Shown here in pieces: positions 1 through 6,458 of a stretch of DNA of 20,000 nucleotides. Numbering within the stretch: the stretch's first letter is position 1; each line of letters opens with the position of its first letter. Where the stretch lies: the sequence record SRR20825010_48; one strand, written 5' to 3'. The position numbers were made by a program, and so were the translations under genes. The notes beneath the pieces are model-generated. The model made no database searches, had not been told where the DNA came from, and was given only the letters and a program-made list of their open reading frames with translations.

Positions 1-378
1 CACCGGGTTGCCGTTCATATAAACACGTGGGTAAGACGGCACATTGCTGATGGACCGAAGGCGCGTGCGCACCTCATCACCCGGAAGCGTATCGGGCACG
101 CTCTTGAGGTCAAACATCGTCGGGTCACCGTCGATGCTGGAAGCGTTCATGGCCTTGATCTCATCAGTGGTGAGGATCACATCACCCGCCCCGCTCGGCA
201 GCGTGTCAACCCAATAGTCTGCGCTCAGGTGCTTTTCCTCGACCTCAATAACGTCTGAGACAAACGCATCATCAAGCCCGTTGGGCGGCGTGACCGTGTT
301 TTGTTTCTCTTCCTCGCTTCCGCAGGCGGCCAAGCCAAGCGCGAGCAACAACAGTAGTTTTGAACCCGGATTTTTCAT
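1..378 (-). CDS. Lipoprotein, N-terminal part only (runs off the left edge); resembles the N-terminus of SH3/NlpC-P60 (YkfC-like) gamma-D-glutamyl peptidases
   Basis: Not in the ORF track. Manual translation from ATG 378 (alternative ATG 390, in frame) is open to base 1: MKNPGSKLLLLLALGLAACGSEEEKQ...SDVIEVEEKHLSADYWV...VILTTDEIKAMNA...ISNVPSYPRVYMNGNPV. It has a LAAC lipobox and an AGGA RBS about 5 nt upstream, and starts just after the DUF819 stop. The NlpC/P60 call rests on recalled similarity and gene context; the catalytic domain is outside the window. Confidence 0.7.
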   Translation of the reverse strand, partial: MKNPGSKLLLLLALGLAACGSEEEKQNTVTPPNGLDDAFVSDVIEVEEKHLSADYWVDTLPSGAGDVILTTDEIKAMNASSIDGDPTMFDLKSVPDTLPGDEVRTRLRSISNVPSYPRVYMNGNPV

Positions 379-404
379 CACATTCCTCATAAGGGTACAG
401 CCTC

Positions 405-1565
405 TCAAGAGAGCAGGGACAATATTTTACCGACCAGCAACCCACCGCCGGTGCCAATGATATACCCAAGCATGGCCATCAGCACCCCGATAGGGATCAG
501 CATTTGTGAATAAGCAGCCGCAAGGATAGGCGCAGACGCCACCCCGCCAATATTGGCAAGTGAGGCGATACCGCAGGAAAACAGATCAAGTTTGAATACC
601 TTTGCCGCCGCCACCATGCAGAGGCCGTGAATGATCAGGATCATCAGGCCTGCAAACACATAAAGCGGTGCCTGCGTGAGGCCTGCGAAGTCTGCACGCG
701 ATGCGATGAGCGCGATAATGGCATAGAGCATGACATTCGCGAGCTCATTGGAACCGGCCATGCGCCCCATCGGTGTCATCGCCGCACTCACGCCCAAAAT
801 GGTGGCAATCAACACCGCCCATGTGGTGCCGGTGAAAAAGCTGGTGGCAGGCATCAGCCCAGCCAGGTTTTGCGATAGCGCGGATGCAGCCAGGCCCGCG
901 CCCAGCAGGAATACAAGCGCTGTGAAGTCGATCCTCTTATCCGCGTCTTCTCCCAGATCCAGTTTTTCACCAACCCGGTCGATGATGCCGGTGTCGCTTT
1001 TGGTCCAGCGGTTGAAAAGCTTGGCGTGCGGTACAAGAGCGAGCAGGAGGATAACCCAGATGGCGTAATCAATCGAATCCATCAGAAGCGTATAGCCCAT
1101 CGAGCTGTCAGGCACATTCAAGGCACCCTGAATGGCCACCATGTTGCCGGTGCCGCCCATCCAACTGCCGGAAAGAGCCGCAAATGCCTTCCAGGCGTCC
1201 GCTGGTAACCATGTATTCAGCACAGTATAAGTAATAACAAAACCAACACCGATACTGATGGCCGCGGCGGCAAAAGCCAGCAACATGCGCGGACCAAGGG
1301 CCGCGATCTTGCGCAGGTCACCCTTCAAAAGCATCAGGAAAATCATCGCAGGCAGGATGTTACCCTTCACCGTGCCGTAGGTCGCGTTCACGCTGGCGCT
1401 TTGTTGCCACAGCCCGAAGGTGCTGAGCATCATCACAATGATATAAAGCGCCACAACGCCGGGCAGATAGTTGAAAATTCGGTGGTTTGTTCCTGTCTCA
1501 AGCAAGCGAATAGCGCCCCCGATCAGAAGCAAAACCGCCAGATACGTGAAACCGTCTGTAATCAC
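405..1565 (-). CDS. DUF819 (YjcL-like) polytopic membrane protein, putative transporter
   Basis: 386 aa with about 10-11 hydrophobic segments. The motifs LSGSWMGGTGNM and IASLANIGGVASAP are typical of DUF819. GTG start preceded by a GGAG RBS. Confidence 0.85.
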   Translation of the reverse strand: MITDGFTYLAVLLLIGGAIRLLETGTNHRIFNYLPGVVALYIIVMMLSTFGLWQQSASVNATYGTVKGNILPAMIFLMLLKGDLRKIAALGPRMLLAFAAAAISIGVGFVITYTVLNTWLPADAWKAFAALSGSWMGGTGNMVAIQGALNVPDSSMGYTLLMDSIDYAIWVILLLALVPHAKLFNRWTKSDTGIIDRVGEKLDLGEDADKRIDFTALVFLLGAGLAASALSQNLAGLMPATSFFTGTTWAVLIATILGVSAAMTPMGRMAGSNELANVMLYAIIALIASRADFAGLTQAPLYVFAGLMILIIHGLCMVAAAKVFKLDLFSCGIASLANIGGVASAPILAAAYSQMLIPIGVLMAMLGYIIGTGGGLLVGKILSLLS

Positions 1566-1588
1566 CGCCCTATTCTCCCCTGACCAAC

Positions 1589-1812
1589 GAATTTATTCCT
1601 TTGGGTATACCCATAGATATAAGTTGTCTGTCATTAAGGCCTTTTTCCGGTCCAAAAGCCTCATAAAACCACAACGGAATTATTTATTCCATCTTCCCAA
1701 ACCGGTTCTACCAGATAGAAATGGAGCAGGGAAGCTTATTTTTTCGGCAATTTTGTGTCGCTTGGAATAAAAATTCTTTACAGAAGGAATAATTCATCGC
1801 ATAAATTATTCG
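1589..1812. promoter_or_regulatory. Cluster of GGAAT/ATTCC operator-like motifs in the divergent promoter region
   Basis: GAATTTATTCC 1589-1599, GGAATTATTTATTCC 1676-1690 (inverted repeat GGAAT-N5-ATTCC), GGAATAAAAATTC 1764-1776, GGAATAATTC 1786-1795 and CGCATAAATTATTCG 1798-1812. Confidence 0.5.
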
Positions 1813-1877
1813 TCAAGTATTCTTGCGACGAGGCGGAGGGGCTTCGTTGCACCAACAGAAAGCTTATGGGTGAGGAA

Positions 1878-4865
1878 ATGAACGCACGGAACTTGCGAAA
1901 ATTATCATTGATACTGGGGATGGGGGTCAGTTGTGCCGCTCTCTCCGTCAATTCAGCCTTCGCAGCCAACAGCGACGGCTCAATCCGGGGTATGGTGACA
2001 AGCGAAAGCAACACCGCCCTCTCCGGTGCTACAATTACGGTTACAAACACGGAAAACGGATTCCGCCGGGCTGTCACTGCTGGCAGCGATGGTCAGTTCC
2101 GTTTCGCCCGCCTGCCGGTGGGCACTTATAATGTAACGGTGTCCAAAGACGGTTATGAACGCACGCTGGTGGAAGACGTTCGCGTTTCCATTGGTGGTTC
2201 AACCGATCTGGACGTTGCGCTGTCAGCTGGCGACATGGCGATGGAAGAGATTATCGTCTCTGCCTCATCGCTTAGCGGCATCAACATGACATCAACCGAA
2301 TCGGCGCTTAACATCAGCGCGGCGATGCTTGAAGACCTGCCGATCGGCCGCTCAGCCGACGCGGTCGCCCTTCTGGCACCCGGCGTTGTACAGGGTCCTG
2401 CTTTTGGTGGCATCTCCTTCGGTGGTGCATCGGTTGGTGAAAACTCCATCTTCGTGAACGGCCTGAACGTGAGCGACGTTGAAACCGGGGTTGGTTTCTC
2501 TGACGTTCCTTTCTCCATGTTCAAGGAATTCCAGGTTAAGACCGGCGGTTATTCCGTTGAATTTGGTCGCACGACTGGTGGTGTTGTGAACGCCGTGCTG
2601 AAATCAGGCACCAACGAGTTCCATGGCGGCGCCGAGGTTTTCTATGAGCCTCAGTTCCTGCGTGGCAACGCAAATGACTTCTATAACCGCGACGGTGACA
2701 AAACCATCTACCGCTCGGACGATGAAACCAACAATTTCAGCGCCAACCTGCACCTGAGCGGGCCAATCATCAAAGACAAGGTCTTCTTCTATGCCTTGTT
2801 CCAGCCGCGTATCAACGACGGTTCGTTCTACAACACAACAGGGTCGTCGCTCAGCCAGTTTGACGACAACTCCTCCTTCTGGGGCGGTAAGGTTGACTGG
2901 TTCATCACCGATAACCACAGCATTGAGGCTTTCGTCTTCTCTGATGAGAACACGGAAGTGACAGACCGCTTCCAGGGCGGCACTTACGCTGAAACCGCAA
3001 CAAGCGAGCGCGGCGGTATCAACTGGGCGGCAACATACACCGGTCAGATCACCGATAATTTCACGGTGAAGGCCCTTTATGGCCGTAACAAGCGGAACTC
3101 CAACGACTACACAAACATCTCAACCGAGTGTAACCGGGTGTATGATGATCGTGACGGCGTGGACGAGCATATCGGCTGTACAACACAGACCCGGAACGAC
3201 AACCGCATCAACTCACGCGACGCCATGCGGCTTGATATGGAATGGCAGCTTGACCGCCATTTGCTCCGTTTCGGCTTTGACCACGAGAAGCGTACAACCT
3301 TCATGGAACGGGCGTCTGTAGGTCCAGAGCAGGCCAACTTCACCATCTATGACACCCAGCCGGGTGACAGCGTGAACGACACCACCGTGCCGGACGGTGT
3401 GAGCGCCTATGTGCTGGCGCGCCAGGAAATTCGTGGTGGTACGTTTGATGCCAACACATCAGCGGCTTATCTTGAAGACATCTGGTCCGTAACCGACGAT
3501 CTGACAGCAACGCTTGGCGTACGCTGGGACCGGTTTGACAGCAAGGACGCTGAAGGCAATTCCTTCATTAAAGTCTCCAACATGTTCTCGCCTCGCTTCG
3601 GCCTCGCGTGGGATGTGAAGGGCGACGGCAACATGAAGCTTTATGCCAACGCAGGTCGCTACTATTTCCCAATCGCCAACGGCCTGGCCGCGCGTGAGGG
3701 TGGTGGCACGATCGATACACGTACCTACTACGCCCTTCAGGGTTTGGTAGAGAATGAAACCAGCGCGGGCCTGACCAACATCACGCCTCAGCTGGGTGCT
3801 CAAATCGGTCAGGTGGTTCAGTTCGGTAGCGGTGAAGGCCGTGACGACAAAAACTTCGTCGTCGACCAGGATCTTGATGCATCATACCAGGACGAGTTCA
3901 TCCTCGGCTTCGAGATGGCCGTCAATGACGACTGGGATTTCGGCGTGCGCGGTATCTACCGTGAATTCCACGACGCGATCGAAGACATGCGCATTGATGT
4001 AGACGTGGCCGGTTGTGGCAACATCTCCAAGTGGGTGTTTGGTAACGTTGGTAAAGAACTGACCATCGACCACGACTGTGACACCGGCGGTGTTCAAACC
4101 GTGACAGTTGATCTCGGTGAAGCGCAAAGCTTCGGTTACGACCTTGACGGTGACGGCAACCCGGACCCAATTGGCTCTGATCGTCCGATCCGCAAATATA
4201 GTGCACTTGAGTTTGTCGCCAATCGCCACTGGGATGACACCTGGATGGCTCGCTTCTCCTACACCCTGTCAAAAAGCACAGGTAACTATGAGGGCGGCGT
4301 CAACTCGGATACCGGCAACGATATCCCGGGCTGGACCGAATCTGGCGATGATGTGATGTTCATCAACTCCAACTATGGCGTGTTGGCAAACGACCACCGG
4401 CACCAGTTCAAGATGTATGGCGCTTATGCCATCACACCTGAGCTGACAGCGGGTGCGAATATGTCCATTCTTTCCGGTGCACCCATCAACGCCCGGGCCT
4501 ATGGTAACCCGTTCAATACCCAAACCCGTAAGGAAGGCAACTATCTCTGCGTTGATAACTGCCTTGACCCGGGCGATGGCATCTGGACGAGCCAGGACCG
4601 TGTGTTTGAGTATATCGAGCGCGGCCAATATGGCACCACGCCTTGGCAGGTTCGCCTTGACCTGAGCCTTGACTACACAACTCAGATCAACGGGTTCGAT
4701 TTTTATGCCGGTCTAGATGTCTTCAACGTGCTGAACACCCAGAAGGCGTTCCGCTTGTATGAGATCATCACGGACAGCTTTGATGGCCCGAACGAGGACT
4801 TCCTCGCGGTCCGTACAGCGGCTCAGCCGCGCTCGGTCCGCCTTAATGTCGGTTTCAAGTTCTGA
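1878..4865 (+). CDS. TonB-dependent receptor, Oar-like, with an N-terminal carboxypeptidase-regulatory-like (prealbumin-fold) domain
   Basis: Signal peptide MNARNLRKLSLILG...SAFA, then GSIRG-V...G-Y-VTVSKDGY (N-terminal domain), TonB-box-like MEEIIVSAS, plug motifs VALLAPGV and EFQVKTGGYSVEFGRTTGGVVNAV, SPRFG, and C-terminal PRSVRLNVGFKF with terminal Phe. The ORF-track start at 1755 is too far upstream; ATG 1878 (or 1866) is more plausible. Confidence 0.93.
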   Translation: MNARNLRKLSLILGMGVSCAALSVNSAFAANSDGSIRGMVTSESNTALSGATITVTNTENGFRRAVTAGSDGQFRFARLPVGTYNVTVSKDGYERTLVEDVRVSIGGSTDLDVALSAGDMAMEEIIVSASSLSGINMTSTESALNISAAMLEDLPIGRSADAVALLAPGVVQGPAFGGISFGGASVGENSIFVNGLNVSDVETGVGFSDVPFSMFKEFQVKTGGYSVEFGRTTGGVVNAVLKSGTNEFHGGAEVFYEPQFLRGNANDFYNRDGDKTIYRSDDETNNFSANLHLSGPIIKDKVFFYALFQPRINDGSFYNTTGSSLSQFDDNSSFWGGKVDWFITDNHSIEAFVFSDENTEVTDRFQGGTYAETATSERGGINWAATYTGQITDNFTVKALYGRNKRNSNDYTNISTECNRVYDDRDGVDEHIGCTTQTRNDNRINSRDAMRLDMEWQLDRHLLRFGFDHEKRTTFMERASVGPEQANFTIYDTQPGDSVNDTTVPDGVSAYVLARQEIRGGTFDANTSAAYLEDIWSVTDDLTATLGVRWDRFDSKDAEGNSFIKVSNMFSPRFGLAWDVKGDGNMKLYANAGRYYFPIANGLAAREGGGTIDTRTYYALQGLVENETSAGLTNITPQLGAQIGQVVQFGSGEGRDDKNFVVDQDLDASYQDEFILGFEMAVNDDWDFGVRGIYREFHDAIEDMRIDVDVAGCGNISKWVFGNVGKELTIDHDCDTGGVQTVTVDLGEAQSFGYDLDGDGNPDPIGSDRPIRKYSALEFVANRHWDDTWMARFSYTLSKSTGNYEGGVNSDTGNDIPGWTESGDDVMFINSNYGVLANDHRHQFKMYGAYAITPELTAGANMSILSGAPINARAYGNPFNTQTRKEGNYLCVDNCLDPGDGIWTSQDRVFEYIERGQYGTTPWQVRLDLSLDYTTQINGFDFYAGLDVFNVLNTQKAFRLYEIITDSFDGPNEDFLAVRTAAQPRSVRLNVGFKF

Positions 4866-4929: not shown

Positions 4930-5376
4930 CTAGTTGTCAAGCCGCAGGTCATCGGGGGAATAGTCGGTCATACGCAACGTGCGATCTTCAATGCCGCCTA
5001 CAAACTTGCCGTGTACGGCGCCCGTGCGCTTCTTGATATCTTTCCACTCCTGATTGGCCATAAAGCCGGCCCAGGCTTCTTTCATCGCCGCTTCACTGGG
5101 CCACTTGAGCAGATAGACAAACTCTGTTTTCTCAGCCGTTTTGGCTTCCCACATCGCTACGATATTAAAGCCGTATTCTTTCATGATCCTGTCCGCATGG
5201 TCGCGAAAACGGTCATGAAACGCCTGTTTGTTATTCTCGAAAATCTGGTAGATGCGCAACTGGTGCACCGGGCCTTCAGATGTTGCCTCGTTAGCCTGCA
5301 CCATGGGTGCGCTGAGGCCGATGGTGGCAGAGATCAACAGGGCGATTGATAGTCGTTTGAGGGGAAGGTTGAACAT
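4930..5376 (-). CDS. NIPSNAP family protein with predicted Sec signal peptide
   Basis: HQLRIY...FHDRFRDH...YGF-IVAMW...FVYLLKWPS...AW-GF..-EW is the NIPSNAP pattern. ATG 5376 follows GGAGG. The N-terminus MFNLPLKRLSIALLISATIGLSAPMVQA looks cleavable. Confidence 0.85.
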   Translation of the reverse strand: MFNLPLKRLSIALLISATIGLSAPMVQANEATSEGPVHQLRIYQIFENNKQAFHDRFRDHADRIMKEYGFNIVAMWEAKTAEKTEFVYLLKWPSEAAMKEAWAGFMANQEWKDIKKRTGAVHGKFVGGIEDRTLRMTDYSPDDLRLDN

Positions 5377-5588
5377 ATTTTCCTCCGTTAACATTTGGTG
5401 GCATTCAATATGTAATGGGCGTGCGCCGACCCTTGCGTTTTATGATCTCTTTTTGGAGGGGTGTTGCGGCAGCCCGTGGCTTCGATGCGACAGGATACCG
5501 AACAGCGTGCTTTTTGGCAAAAACCCGCACGATGGCCCGAACGAGAAGAGGCTTTATCTTCACACCAAGCTATGGTTAGGCTACCTAC

Positions 5589-6458
5589 ATGATTAAGCCG
5601 ATAAGCGAAAAACTGATGACCCTGCAACCGGGGCTCAAGATGGCCAGCCCATCGGGGTTTGCCCGTGCCTATGGGCTGTCTGCCGTCATCTGGTTTTTGC
5701 TCGCACTTTTGTTTGCGGCTGAGGGTTATATCCTCAGTCGATACCGTGGTGGCGGGCAACCATGGTGGCCGTCTTTTGGTTATTCACTGGCAATATTCTC
5801 CATCTGGGCGCTGATCAGCCCGTTGCTGCTCAGGCTTATAGGCCTTATTGAGAAACAGGGCCTGAAGCCCATAAGCCGTGCCAGCCTTTATACGCTTGGT
5901 CTCGCCATTATCAACCCGCTGCATGTGATGCTTTTTGTGCTGGTTTACTGGCCGTTTTATAACGACGGCGGGCGCATCGCCACCCGGCTGGAAATGGGCG
6001 AACGCATGATTGTACAGAACCTGCATACAAACCTGATTTTCTATGCCGTGCTGGTGCTGATCGGGGTGGGCATGCACGCACTAAAAGTTCGTGAGCTAAG
6101 CAAACCAGATCGGCAAGCTGAGCCCACAACCCTGAGCCTTCGTACCAAGGGTAGTGTGCGCCTTCTCGCGCACTCTGATATCAACTGGATCGCGGCCGCA
6201 GGCAATTACGCCGAGGTGCACACAACAAACGGCGCCTTCCTCGCGGACGATAGCCTCAGCGCTCTTCAGGCACAGCTGCCTGCGAGCAGCTTCGCGCGCA
6301 TTCACCGGGGCCACCTTGTGCGCACCGCAGCGATCAGTGAAGTGAAGAGCCTTGGGCGGGGCGACGCCCGTGTCATGCTCAAGGGCGGTACCGAGTTACG
6401 CCTCAGCCGCCGCTACAGGGAAGCGCTCACGTCTCTTCTTGGCAAGGACAGCCGATAG
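5589..6458 (+). CDS. Membrane-anchored LytTR-domain transcriptional regulator (one-component)
   Basis: About 4 hydrophobic segments, then LytTR motifs WIAAAGNYAEVH, FARIHRGHLV and LSRRY. No receiver domain. The start is uncertain (ATG 5589, 5616 or 5640). Confidence 0.85.
   Translation: MIKPISEKLMTLQPGLKMASPSGFARAYGLSAVIWFLLALLFAAEGYILSRYRGGGQPWWPSFGYSLAIFSIWALISPLLLRLIGLIEKQGLKPISRASLYTLGLAIINPLHVMLFVLVYWPFYNDGGRIATRLEMGERMIVQNLHTNLIFYAVLVLIGVGMHALKVRELSKPDRQAEPTTLSLRTKGSVRLLAHSDINWIAAAGNYAEVHTTNGAFLADDSLSALQAQLPASSFARIHRGHLVRTAAISEVKSLGRGDARVMLKGGTELRLSRRYREALTSLLGKDSR

Follow-up and report, generated by a model that had tools for sequence, protein, structure and literature searches.

A probable RpiR-controlled gene set for feeding on peptidoglycan stem peptides, with a DUF819 membrane protein and an Oar-like TonB-dependent receptor, in a marine Kordiimonas-like alphaproteobacterium

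Peptidoglycan is among the largest marine pools of organic nitrogen and D-amino acids, and the uptake of other cells' wall fragments by Gram-negative bacteria is poorly mapped. Known carriers of wall fragments are AmpG, Opp/MppA and the carriers of N-acetylmuramic acid (MurNAc). The closest described systems for stem peptides are ykfABCD of Bacillus subtilis and Bacillus cereus, where ykfA encodes an LD-carboxypeptidase and ykfD a component of an ABC peptide transporter, and murein tripeptide recycling in Escherichia coli (MppA-Opp, MpaA, YcjG, LdcA, Mpl), with MpaA located in the cytoplasm. This study deals with a 20,000-nt stretch of DNA (the window; record SRR20825010_48), which is G000:C1:1888103-1908102 of a complete genome of 4,179,304 bp. 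The host is a marine Kordiimonas-like alphaproteobacterium. At the left end of the window, the gene of an Oar-like TonB-dependent receptor (TBDR) lies divergent from the gene of a DUF819 membrane protein, which is followed by the gene of an NlpC/P60-type lipoprotein. An earlier reading made from the letters alone (the sequence-only reading) had described this arrangement with its common promoter region, where all three genes were indeed found, and had proposed a role in the utilisation of murein stem peptides. Comparative evidence from gene content, conserved linkage and a shared palindrome supports this role. We are confident that the locus deals with murein peptides; that the bacterium uses it to feed on such stem peptides of peptidoglycan, as an accessory module under RpiR control, is probable from the sequence evidence.

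The 16 kb left of the window were included as locus L002 (a window position is the L002 position minus 16000). The same two core reactions as in ykfABCD are predicted: the epimerase encoded in L002 is a full-length YkfB match, and the lipoprotein shares the SH3b1 plus NlpC/P60 core with YkfC (PDB 3h41). In contrast to ykfABCD, the peptidase is a four-domain lipoprotein of the DvLysin type with Asn in place of the YkfC Asp, the transporters are DUF819, an NhaC-type carrier and the outer-membrane TBDR, and no S66 LD-carboxypeptidase was found in the genome. As in E. coli, an L-Ala-D/L-Glu epimerase is used. Unlike E. coli, the genome contains no Mpl above the cut-off (the best match lies in the mur cluster) and no LdcA, so that re-ligation of the tripeptide as in E. 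coli is not possible; the predicted cleavage is periplasmic and performed by a cysteine peptidase instead of the metallo-amidase MpaA, and meso-diaminopimelate (mDAP) is proposed to be channelled to a dedicated second LysA. DvLysin (DVU_0896, PDB 3m1u), the best match of the lipoprotein in sequence and fold and with the YGWG, RDC, PRNS and GH motifs in common, is itself a lysin active on whole peptidoglycan, whereas the lipoprotein has a predicted Tyr gate. For Bacteroides BT1313-BT1314, an excerpt of PMC4600125 gives the proposal that L-Ala-L-Glu is imported after epimerisation via an oligopeptide permease. Since the epimerase of the present locus lacks a signal peptide, here the D-form of the dipeptide must be imported. 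The nearest precedent for the receptor, by proposed role, is the TonB-dependent transporter NixC in the N-acetylglucosamine (GlcNAc) regulon of Xanthomonas campestris, for which uptake of peptidoglycan degradation products was proposed on indirect genetic evidence (PMC4173781, in excerpt). The NixC system is sugar-centred (GlcNAc, NagP, NagA), whereas here an Oar-like TBDR is tied to the peptide branch. DUF819 resembles CitS and the 2-hydroxycarboxylate and glutamate:Na+ symporter families (CPA/AT clan) in its predicted fold, at an identity of 15-17%. The RpiR-type regulator has the HTH_6 plus SIS architecture of MurR/RpiR regulators such as E. coli MurR and rhizobial IolR, and the IolR site, GGAA-N6-TTCC, resembles the palindromic GAAT...ATTC found here. 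Different from the known regulators are the 5-nt spacing of the site, the lack of a MurQ above the cut-off in this genome and scores below the MurR equivalog cut-offs.

As the YkfC/YkfB-type core chemistry is already known, the locus extends a known pathway and is not a new kind of system; new are its transport and regulatory parts. Searches of the CC-licensed literature in PubMed Central and of bioRxiv gave no DUF819 member with a known substrate, no link of DUF819, PF05684 or YjcL to peptidoglycan in titles, abstracts and excerpts, and, among the papers listed, no description of such a TBDR-DUF819-epimerase-NlpC locus. The word 'TonB' is absent from a 2024 review of muropeptide transporters. 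If the proposed role is true, a DUF819 subfamily gains a substrate and an Oar-like receptor family a substrate class, and the simple operator defines a regulon that is traceable in marine metagenomes.

The lipoprotein was missed by the open reading frame (ORF) list, as the sequence-only reading had pointed out: its ORF (1-408, minus strand) leaves the window and was recorded only as open-ended. The 136 residues inside the window matched no Pfam family, and the domains emerged only from the full-length gene. The true start is likely ATG 390 or 378, and a lipobox (LGLAAC) is present at the N-terminus. The protein consists of a c-clip-like N-terminal part, two SH3b domains (SH3_6, 51.8 bits, E 6e-14) and an NlpC/P60 domain (NLPC_P60, 39.5 bits vs a cut-off of 23, E 5.9e-10). 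It matches DvLysin by sequence (E 1.6e-15), and DvLysin was also the best fold match (E 7e-26, TMt 0.77-0.78, 440-464 alignment columns) of an AlphaFold2 (AF2) model with a pLDDT of 82, followed by the Photobacterium endopeptidase 6sqx (E 4e-21) and by YkfC orthologues. The resemblance to SH3/NlpC-P60 gamma-D-Glu-mDAP peptidases, suspected earlier from the N-terminus, was thereby borne out. Cys360 and His420 were kept in all 24 large homologues and His436 in 23 (one gap). The motifs RYGWG, RDCTG, PRNS and PGH are present and conserved; the S2/S1 subsite motifs of these amidases are YGWG, RDC(S), PRNS and GH according to an excerpt of PMC4600125. As the same excerpt has it, a Tyr/Asp pair is typical of recycling NlpC/P60 enzymes that act on free stem peptides only, the corresponding residues of DvLysin are Ala211/Asn, and the exchange A211Y alone makes DvLysin specific for free tetrapeptides. 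In recycling enzymes such as YkfC and AvPCP, the Tyr comes from SH3b1 and leaves no room for groups N-terminal of L-Ala, and the Asp at Cys+18 binds the free amine of L-Ala. Tyr222 of the lipoprotein aligns to A211 of DvLysin in pairwise phmmer and profile alignments, and Tyr at this position as well as Asn at Cys+18 were found in 24 of 24 large homologues. Judged by these alignments, the lipoprotein naturally holds the Tyr/Asn combination of the engineered A211Y DvLysin, and alignment and model suggest a gamma-D-Glu-mDAP amidase for free stem peptides. NCBIfam contained no family for the lipoprotein, DUF819 or the TBDR.

Extension to the left and a domain search, as proposed in the sequence-only reading, yielded the NLPC_P60, SH3 and epimerase (MR_MLE) domains, and further genes for peptidoglycan peptides follow, namely those of the YkfB-type epimerase, an S12 hydrolase, lysA and the RpiR regulator. 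The epimerase (MR_MLE_C, 178.6 bits; MR_MLE_N, 54.2 bits) matches B. subtilis YkfB (PDB 1jpm/1tkk) with 331.9 bits (E 4.4e-98) over residues 1-355 of both proteins, and because this match begins at residue 1, there is no signal peptide. E. coli YcjG (1jpd) matches with E 3.3e-22. The catalytic lysines and metal ligands (K160/K162, D190, E218, D243 and K267, aligned to YkfB) are kept, and so are Arg24 and D321-x-D323. In L-Ala-D/L-Glu epimerases, Arg24 binds the side-chain carboxylate of Glu and D-x-D the amine of the dipeptide. The DUF819 stop (405) overlaps the lipoprotein ORF start (408) and the epimerase start lies 21 nt beyond the lipoprotein stop, so that the three genes fit a single operon. 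The best solved relative of the S12 protein with DUF3471 is 2qmi, followed by D-Ala-D-Ala carboxypeptidases and D-peptidases, while a D-aminoacylase-like protein encoded further left matches the N-acyl-D-glutamate deacylase 3gip (E 8.8e-51) and D-aminoacylases. LysA scored 449 bits with TIGR01048 (cut-off 297.9); a second lysA copy is located at 2.64 Mb in the genome and is 49.9% identical to that of the locus. Signal or lipobox sequences were read at the N-termini of the lipoprotein, S12, M19 and D-aminoacylase proteins, and none on the epimerase and LysA. With an exported peptidase and a cytoplasmic epimerase, a carrier is needed between the peptidase product and the epimerase.

The DUF819 protein covers model positions 2-377 of 379 of PF05684 (325.1 bits vs a cut-off of 27, E 7.6e-97). 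The best solved match of its AF2 model (33 sequences; pLDDT 86.2, pTM 0.83) is the Na+/citrate symporter CitS (E 1.5e-5, TMq 0.67-0.68). An excerpt of PMC8396727 describes DUF819 as modelled on the CitS template with 10 helices and two re-entrant hairpins, in the CPA/AT clan. In the present model, G137-G138 and G340-G341 lie in short inter-helix breaks (residues 138 and 340-344), which we read as the predicted tips of the re-entrant hairpins. For the neighbourhood census, a homologue search gave 516 confirmed DUF819 relatives, of which the best 80 were analysed with up to 10 kb of flank each. ORFs were called by a script of our own and scored with phmmer against the window proteins, and clusters of neighbours were named by Pfam. 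By record title, the 80 loci belong to Campylobacterota (38), Alphaproteobacteria (19), Clostridia-type bacteria (12), other Pseudomonadota (5), Desulfobacterota (2), Synergistaceae (1) and Fusobacteriaceae (1), with two unplaced, and span at least six phyla. Their DUF819 proteins are 59-96% identical to that of the window, with 81% in Kordiimonas aestuarii and still 59-68% in the records of Clostridia, Campylobacterota, Desulfobacterota, Synergistaceae and Fusobacteriaceae.

The survey of neighbourhoods asked for by the sequence-only reading found an epimerase gene within 5 kb of DUF819 in 39 of the 56 loci that have at least 5 kb of downstream flank, in 38 cases downstream on the same strand. 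Anywhere in the locus, an epimerase gene was present in 51 of 80, and an epimerase or NlpC/P60 gene in 64 of 80; the other 16 comprise nine loci with less than 5 kb of downstream flank and seven with full flanks. Arg24 and DxD were kept in all 50 DUF819-linked epimerases that were aligned (at least 300 bits). DUF819 is taken as the candidate importer because it is the sole membrane protein travelling with the epimerase across phyla, and L-Ala-D-Glu is reasonably likely to be its substrate. A peptidoglycan-linked DUF819 subfamily was defined by an identity of at least about 59% and an epimerase or NlpC/P60 gene within a few kb, and the window protein falls into it. The earlier expectation that DUF819 often neighbours NlpC/P60, epimerase and RpiR genes holds for this one highly conserved subfamily and failed for others: in an even sample of 401 genomes of Pseudomonadota, DUF819 was found in 25, and the peptidoglycan context only in two of these, the genome of the window and one other (locus L104). 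RpiR was present in seven of the 23 loci with a large peptidase.

The large peptidase occurs in 23 loci (Alpha- and Gammaproteobacteria and Clostridium tetanomorphum), directly downstream of DUF819 in 21 of them. In Hyphomonadales and Maricaulaceae the order is (arrowheads giving the direction, some genes in brackets) <TBDR >Amidase_2+PG_binding (>NamZ) >M19 (>lysA) >DUF819 >NlpC (>epimerase) >D-aminoacylase <S12-DUF3471 <SSF >MurQ-like, with a BadF/G-type kinase nearby. By their gene content, these are complete peptidoglycan utilisation loci. The Hyphomonadales amidase, M19, D-aminoacylase and peptidase products mostly carry a lipobox or signal peptide, and the epimerases start like YkfB. The D-aminoacylase gene directly follows the peptidase gene in seven Hyphomonadales loci, all seven products having a lipobox or signal peptide. 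In the genome of the window, tblastn with NamZ, MurQ-like, BadF/G, DUF3870 and M20 queries gave no hit at E 1e-8. With NamZ, MurQ-like and BadF/G lacking, the sugar branch of Hyphomonadales was not found here and the module is peptide-centred.

In Clostridia, the usual order is DUF819, DUF3870 and epimerase, often followed by an M20 peptidase. The DUF3870 protein of about 110 aa between DUF819 and the epimerase was found mainly in Clostridia-type loci (cluster of 14; L019, L026, L027, L029, L049, L050, L054, L059, L060, L071, L073, L075 and L082) and may act as an additional subunit or as a small enzyme in the route of the dipeptide. In Campylobacterota metagenome-assembled genomes (MAGs) of the Sulfurovum type (e.g. 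L022, L028, L043, L048), DUF819 is preceded by a gene for a patatin-like phospholipase (cluster of 25), and PLD as well as endonuclease/exonuclease/phosphatase-family genes are often found upstream. The peptidase in these loci is a small NlpC/P60 protein (54-77 bits) without the Tyr. Another DUF819 subfamily, about 28-29% identical, is encoded in a conserved, housekeeping-looking gene row (L089-L093, L097, L100), which in L092 reads, by Pfam, hemA, prfA, prmC, an HD-domain response regulator, sirB, a TPR/transglutaminase-like gene, DUF819 and a DAHP-synthase-family gene. An M15 peptidase gene is the partner of a DUF819 gene in Neisseria meningitidis (excerpt of PMC12671195), which may hint at D-amino-acid peptides for another DUF819 branch.

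A palindrome in the TBDR/DUF819 spacer, GGAATTATTTATTCC, has the core GAAT-W5-ATTC, which occurs four times in the whole 4.18-Mb genome, each time at a promoter of the gene set of the locus (operator sites 1 to 4, Table 1). Three of the matches are in L002, where 0.01 are expected and none of 200 shuffles reached three. The fourth precedes the gene of an M19 dipeptidase lipoprotein (PF01244, 329 bits), which is the best homologue in this genome of the M19 protein of the Hyphomonadales loci. The motif was present at the corresponding promoters in all seven fetched loci with RpiR (L003, L004, L012, L046, L021, L024 and L077) and in one of the 73 other loci. GGAATTATTTATTCC is conserved in L003, L004 and L046 and nearly so in L012, and blocks of the spacer are conserved in the four Kordiimonadales loci. 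The regulator (HTH_6, 83.7 bits; SIS, 53.2 bits) has the MurR/RpiR model as its best NCBIfam match, and from these sequence patterns we infer that it acts at operators of the GGAATTATTTATTCC type. A candidate TBDR promoter was read by eye (TTTACA, 1777-1782; CATAAA, 1800-1805), beside the half-site pair GGAATAAAAATTC; it was not picked up by a promoter and terminator scan, which gave four and four sites vs 3.8 and 3.9 in shuffles and hence no excess. Rfam had no match at E <= 1 in the 551-nt promoter region, which therefore contains no known riboswitch. Between two RpiR-type sites lies a further perfect palindrome, TTCTACCAGATAGAA, identical in L003, one base off in L004 and L046 and partial in L012; a second regulator may bind there. 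Elsewhere in the genome (L111, G000:C1:3507000-3525000), a cluster with phytase, TBDR, iolG/B/C/D/E-like and SSF genes and its own RpiR has four GAAT-W4-ATTC sites. From this 4-nt variant in a phytase/inositol locus, the half-site looks typical of the family and the spacing specific.

The TBDR has a CarboxypepD_reg domain (77.7 bits, ORF residues 76-157), a plug (Plug, 32.7 vs a cut-off of 23.9) and barrel matches (TonB_dep_Rec_b-barrel, 64.3 vs 27; OMP_b-brl_4, 97.8 vs 30); the term Oar-like (or Oar-type) denotes this domain architecture only. The likely start, ATG 1878, is preceded by a Shine-Dalgarno sequence (GGTGAGGA) and followed by a signal peptide, and EEIIVSA, seen by eye in the translated stretch that separates the N-terminal domain from the plug, is a TonB box candidate. 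Close homologues (1377-2325 bits) are encoded beside DUF819 in L003, L004, L012, L046 and L021, adjacent to and divergent from DUF819 in the four Kordiimonadales loci and convergent behind the peptidase in the gammaproteobacterial MAG L021. In total, 14 of the 23 loci with a large peptidase have an Oar-type TBDR no more than about 5 kb away, five of these receptors being close homologues and nine distant ones. Seven of the distant ones scored 69-94 bits in phmmer and two (L015, L080) were joined via blastp clustering; Pfam on one TBDR of each distant group (L007 and L080) gave the CarboxypepD_reg domain only. The nine loci without TBDR comprise three short or truncated contigs, one contig cut where the sister locus has the receptor, one Gram-positive locus, one with a HEPN/DUF499 insertion and three related Robiginitomaculum MAGs. 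At L037 3975-7274, a 1099-aa HEPN_Swt1 plus DUF499 protein (defence-like) is encoded where related loci have the TBDR.

Of 61 genomes of the order, three, including that of the window, have both the close TBDR and the close DUF819 (66-100% identity each), and at that level neither gene was found alone. Three of the four other genomes of the genus and seven of the nine other sampled genomes of the family had neither gene; four genomes of the order contained receptors of only 32-35% identity and no DUF819 at E 1e-50. The gap between both genes is 313 and 259 nt in the other two positive genomes, which match L004 and L012 in their identities, probably belong to the same species and therefore do not count again for adjacency; the genomes lacking both genes do add to the evidence from the fetched loci. 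In a locus from another class (L104, phylum sample), a TBDR (699 bits) is divergent from an operon with DUF819 (315), epimerase (572 bits) and RpiR. Since the divergent pair recurs in four related loci and both genes occur jointly in three of 61 genomes, the arrangement is more than chance, and the linkage of receptor and DUF819 on which the sequence-only reading relied is conserved. Short contigs identical to 1844-4530 occur in four public runs from two studies, which are labelled as RNA by guess only; none covers 1-1793, and nothing about expression follows from either finding. One longer contig per run shares two patches of 26-37 nt with the TBDR gene (2601-2626, 2758-2794) and is probably a homologue of another organism.

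In the proposed mechanism, the Oar-like TBDR would bring peptidoglycan-derived peptides or muropeptides across the outer membrane. In the periplasm, the exported S12 plus DUF3471 protein, a D-peptidase-like enzyme, the M19 dipeptidase and perhaps the D-aminoacylase-like enzyme would trim the D-Ala end, the M19 lipoprotein, encoded away from the locus, joining via the same operator. The NlpC/P60 lipoprotein would then cut the gamma-D-Glu-mDAP bond of the free stem peptides. DUF819, as a secondary carrier with the predicted CitS fold, would import L-Ala-D-Glu, and the NhaC-type carrier probably mDAP or mDAP-D-Ala. In the cytoplasm, the YkfB-type epimerase would make L-Ala-L-Glu for ordinary dipeptidases, and the second LysA, that of the locus, would turn mDAP into lysine. 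That the TBDR belongs to the murein-peptide system and imports is somewhat favoured. A wider statement combines three parts: the DUF819 subfamily would be the missing L-Ala-D-Glu importer (Na+- or H+-coupled, elevator-type), transferred with the YkfB-type epimerase across at least six phyla; the marine Alpha- and Gammaproteobacteria loci would be headed by Oar-type TBDRs as the first outer-membrane transporters for cell-wall peptides or muropeptides; and the Kordiimonadales loci would be switched by a MurR-like RpiR repressor at GGAAT-N5-ATTCC. As a whole, this statement is tentative, with slightly less than an even chance.

Several observations weigh against the proposed pathway. The census covers the best 80 of 516 relatives with 38 MAGs of Campylobacterota, and as many of the loci are kin, the counts are not independent. 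The seven full-flank DUF819 loci without epimerase and peptidase have no peptidoglycan genes nearby. The remaining DUF819 proteins of the 401-genome sample are 21-29% identical and encoded in unrelated contexts (hemA-prfA-prmC...kdsA, CstA, KefC-like); because most sampled DUF819 genes are of this kind, the claim was narrowed to one subfamily. The epimerase stays below the NCBIfam equivalog cut-offs of NF041118 and NF011708 (241.5 vs 500 and 105.9 vs 343), models built on Thermotoga- and E. coli-type enzymes. In the lipoprotein, Cys+18 is Asn378 (PRNS, as in DvLysin) and not the Asp of YkfC-type enzymes (PRDS in 3h41), and for this reason it was filed as a DvLysin-type enzyme with a Tyr gate and not as a YkfC orthologue. 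A Tyr-gated peptidase depends on peptides that have been released from MurNAc beforehand, and no amidase for this step is encoded in the locus; the sole Amidase_2 homologue found in the genome is unlinked. The TBDR is not strictly required, tri- and tetrapeptides being small enough for porins. The regulator is below the MurR equivalog cut-offs (PRK15482, 126.1 vs 408; PRK11557, 185.1 vs 355). RpiR/SIS regulators usually sense sugar phosphates, and the locus has such a regulator without any sugar enzyme. Furthermore, 10 of the 17 loci (of 56) without an epimerase within 5 kb are of the Hyphomonadales type, and five of these have the lipoprotein D-aminoacylase instead. Should this enzyme cleave L-Ala-D-Glu in the periplasm, the solute carried by DUF819 in these loci would be D-Glu; just as well, the enzyme could be the missing LD-carboxypeptidase.

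These five loci, whose D-aminoacylase has 3gip among its PDB relatives, lead to a different assignment, in which DUF819 carries another peptidoglycan solute (D-Glu, mDAP or the tri- or tetrapeptide) and the dipeptide enters via the NhaC-type carrier or a general peptide permease. The clan of DUF819 includes the glutamate:Na+ symporter family (PMC8396727, in excerpt), and only 19 nt separate DUF819 from the upstream lysA in Hyphomonadales. We consider this assignment unlikely, as the minimal pair in Clostridia, Campylobacterota, Desulfobacterota and the Fusobacteriaceae MAG consists of DUF819 and a cytoplasmic epimerase with Arg24, often without lysA or any peptidase, and as in Kordiimonadales it is nhaC and not DUF819 that shares a promoter region with lysA. 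About as improbable is salvage of the cell's own peptidoglycan turnover in the periplasm, with the TBDR recapturing leakage or serving another substrate under the same regulator. All hydrolases are periplasmic, where peptides of the cell's own turnover arise, a genome without Mpl and LdcA needs some route of peptide salvage, and an AnmK match in the genome shows that its own sugar fragments are recycled. The module, however, is accessory and missing from most sampled genomes of genus and family, unlike housekeeping recycling; the gene of an outer-membrane importer lies close by in 14 of 23 loci and has the operator, and in Hyphomonadales the exo-muramidase NamZ and MurQ-like genes for catabolism come in addition.

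Two further explanations are far less probable than these. Myxococcus Oar is involved in protease secretion. With its Oar-type architecture, the present receptor might likewise work outwards and help to bring the NlpC/P60 lipoprotein out of the cell or to its surface for attack on neighbouring bacteria; the Photobacterium endopeptidase, second among the fold matches of the lipoprotein, would fit such a role. This explanation is rendered highly improbable by Tyr222 at the A211 position of DvLysin, which argues for free peptides over intact wall, and by the catabolic nature of the rest of the regulon (epimerase, lysA, dipeptidase). The substrates might also be other D-amino-acid peptides, such as non-ribosomal peptides or fragments of poly-gamma-glutamate, considering that several S12 hydrolases, the D-aminoacylase-like gene and a DAO-type oxidoreductase upstream represent generic D-amino-acid chemistry. 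The gamma-D-Glu-mDAP amidase fold, the L-Ala-D/L-Glu epimerase and the mDAP decarboxylase, in contrast, match the stem peptide residue by residue and related loci carry MurNAc-specific genes, which leaves little probability for substrates other than peptidoglycan.

Table 1. Features of the window, of the adjoining locus L002 and of the distant operator site
Feature	Position	Strand	Basis or remark
Lipoprotein gene, 5' part (first 136 ORF codons)	1..408	-	ORF leaves window edge
DUF819 gene, 386 aa, first of operon	405..1565	-	PF05684
Divergent regulatory spacer DUF819/TBDR, 312 nt	1566..1877	.	sequence
Palindrome GGAATTATTTATTCC, candidate RpiR operator (operator site 1, TBDR/DUF819 spacer)	1676..1690	.	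core GAAT-W5-ATTC; genome motif search
Palindrome TTCTACCAGATAGAA	1706..1720	.	one match in whole genome
GGAATAAAAATTC, half-site pair with 4-nt spacing	1764..1776	.	sequence; beside -35/-10 candidate for TBDR read by eye
Oar-like TBDR, 995 aa from ATG 1878	1878..4865 (ORF 1755-4865)	+	Pfam
Whole lipoprotein gene, 485 aa	L002 14951-16408		genome sequence
Enolase-superfamily protein (epimerase), 365 aa	L002 13832-14929		Pfam, PDB match
Exported S12 beta-lactamase-fold hydrolase with DUF3471	L002 12190-13746	+	Pfam
NhaC-family carrier	L002 10718-12160	+	divergent from lysA
Operator site 2, between lysA and nhaC	L002 10626
lysA	L002 9310-10590	-	TIGR01048
RpiR/MurR-type regulator	L002 8456-9313	+	HTH_6 + SIS
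Second exported S12 hydrolase	L002 6905-8320		Pfam
Operator site 3, 79 nt upstream of second S12 gene	L002 6814
Operator site 4, about 30 nt upstream of M19 dipeptidase lipoprotein gene	3326732

Left of the second S12 gene, a RibD_C protein, the exported D-aminoacylase-like amidohydrolase, a third S12 hydrolase, a DAO-type flavoprotein and a LysR regulator are encoded. The flavoprotein, an exported S12 protein and the exported D-aminoacylase-like enzyme occupy L002 2229-6138, about 10-14 kb left of the window, beside the LysR regulator. At the distant operator site, the M19 gene is followed by a gene for a 712-aa exported PD40/DPPIV_N beta-propeller protein, which could be one more peptidase that the regulon supplies to the periplasm, and FeoB is encoded upstream (L110, G000:C1:3323229-3326703). 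Downstream of the TBDR (4930-6458), a convergent exported NIPSNAP-domain protein and a membrane LytTR-domain protein are encoded, with no link to the regulon for either. The LytTR gene is retained in L003 and hardly in L004, and the NIPSNAP gene was detected in L046 only. In L012, the TBDR is flanked by genes for a DAO and for an S66 LD-carboxypeptidase.

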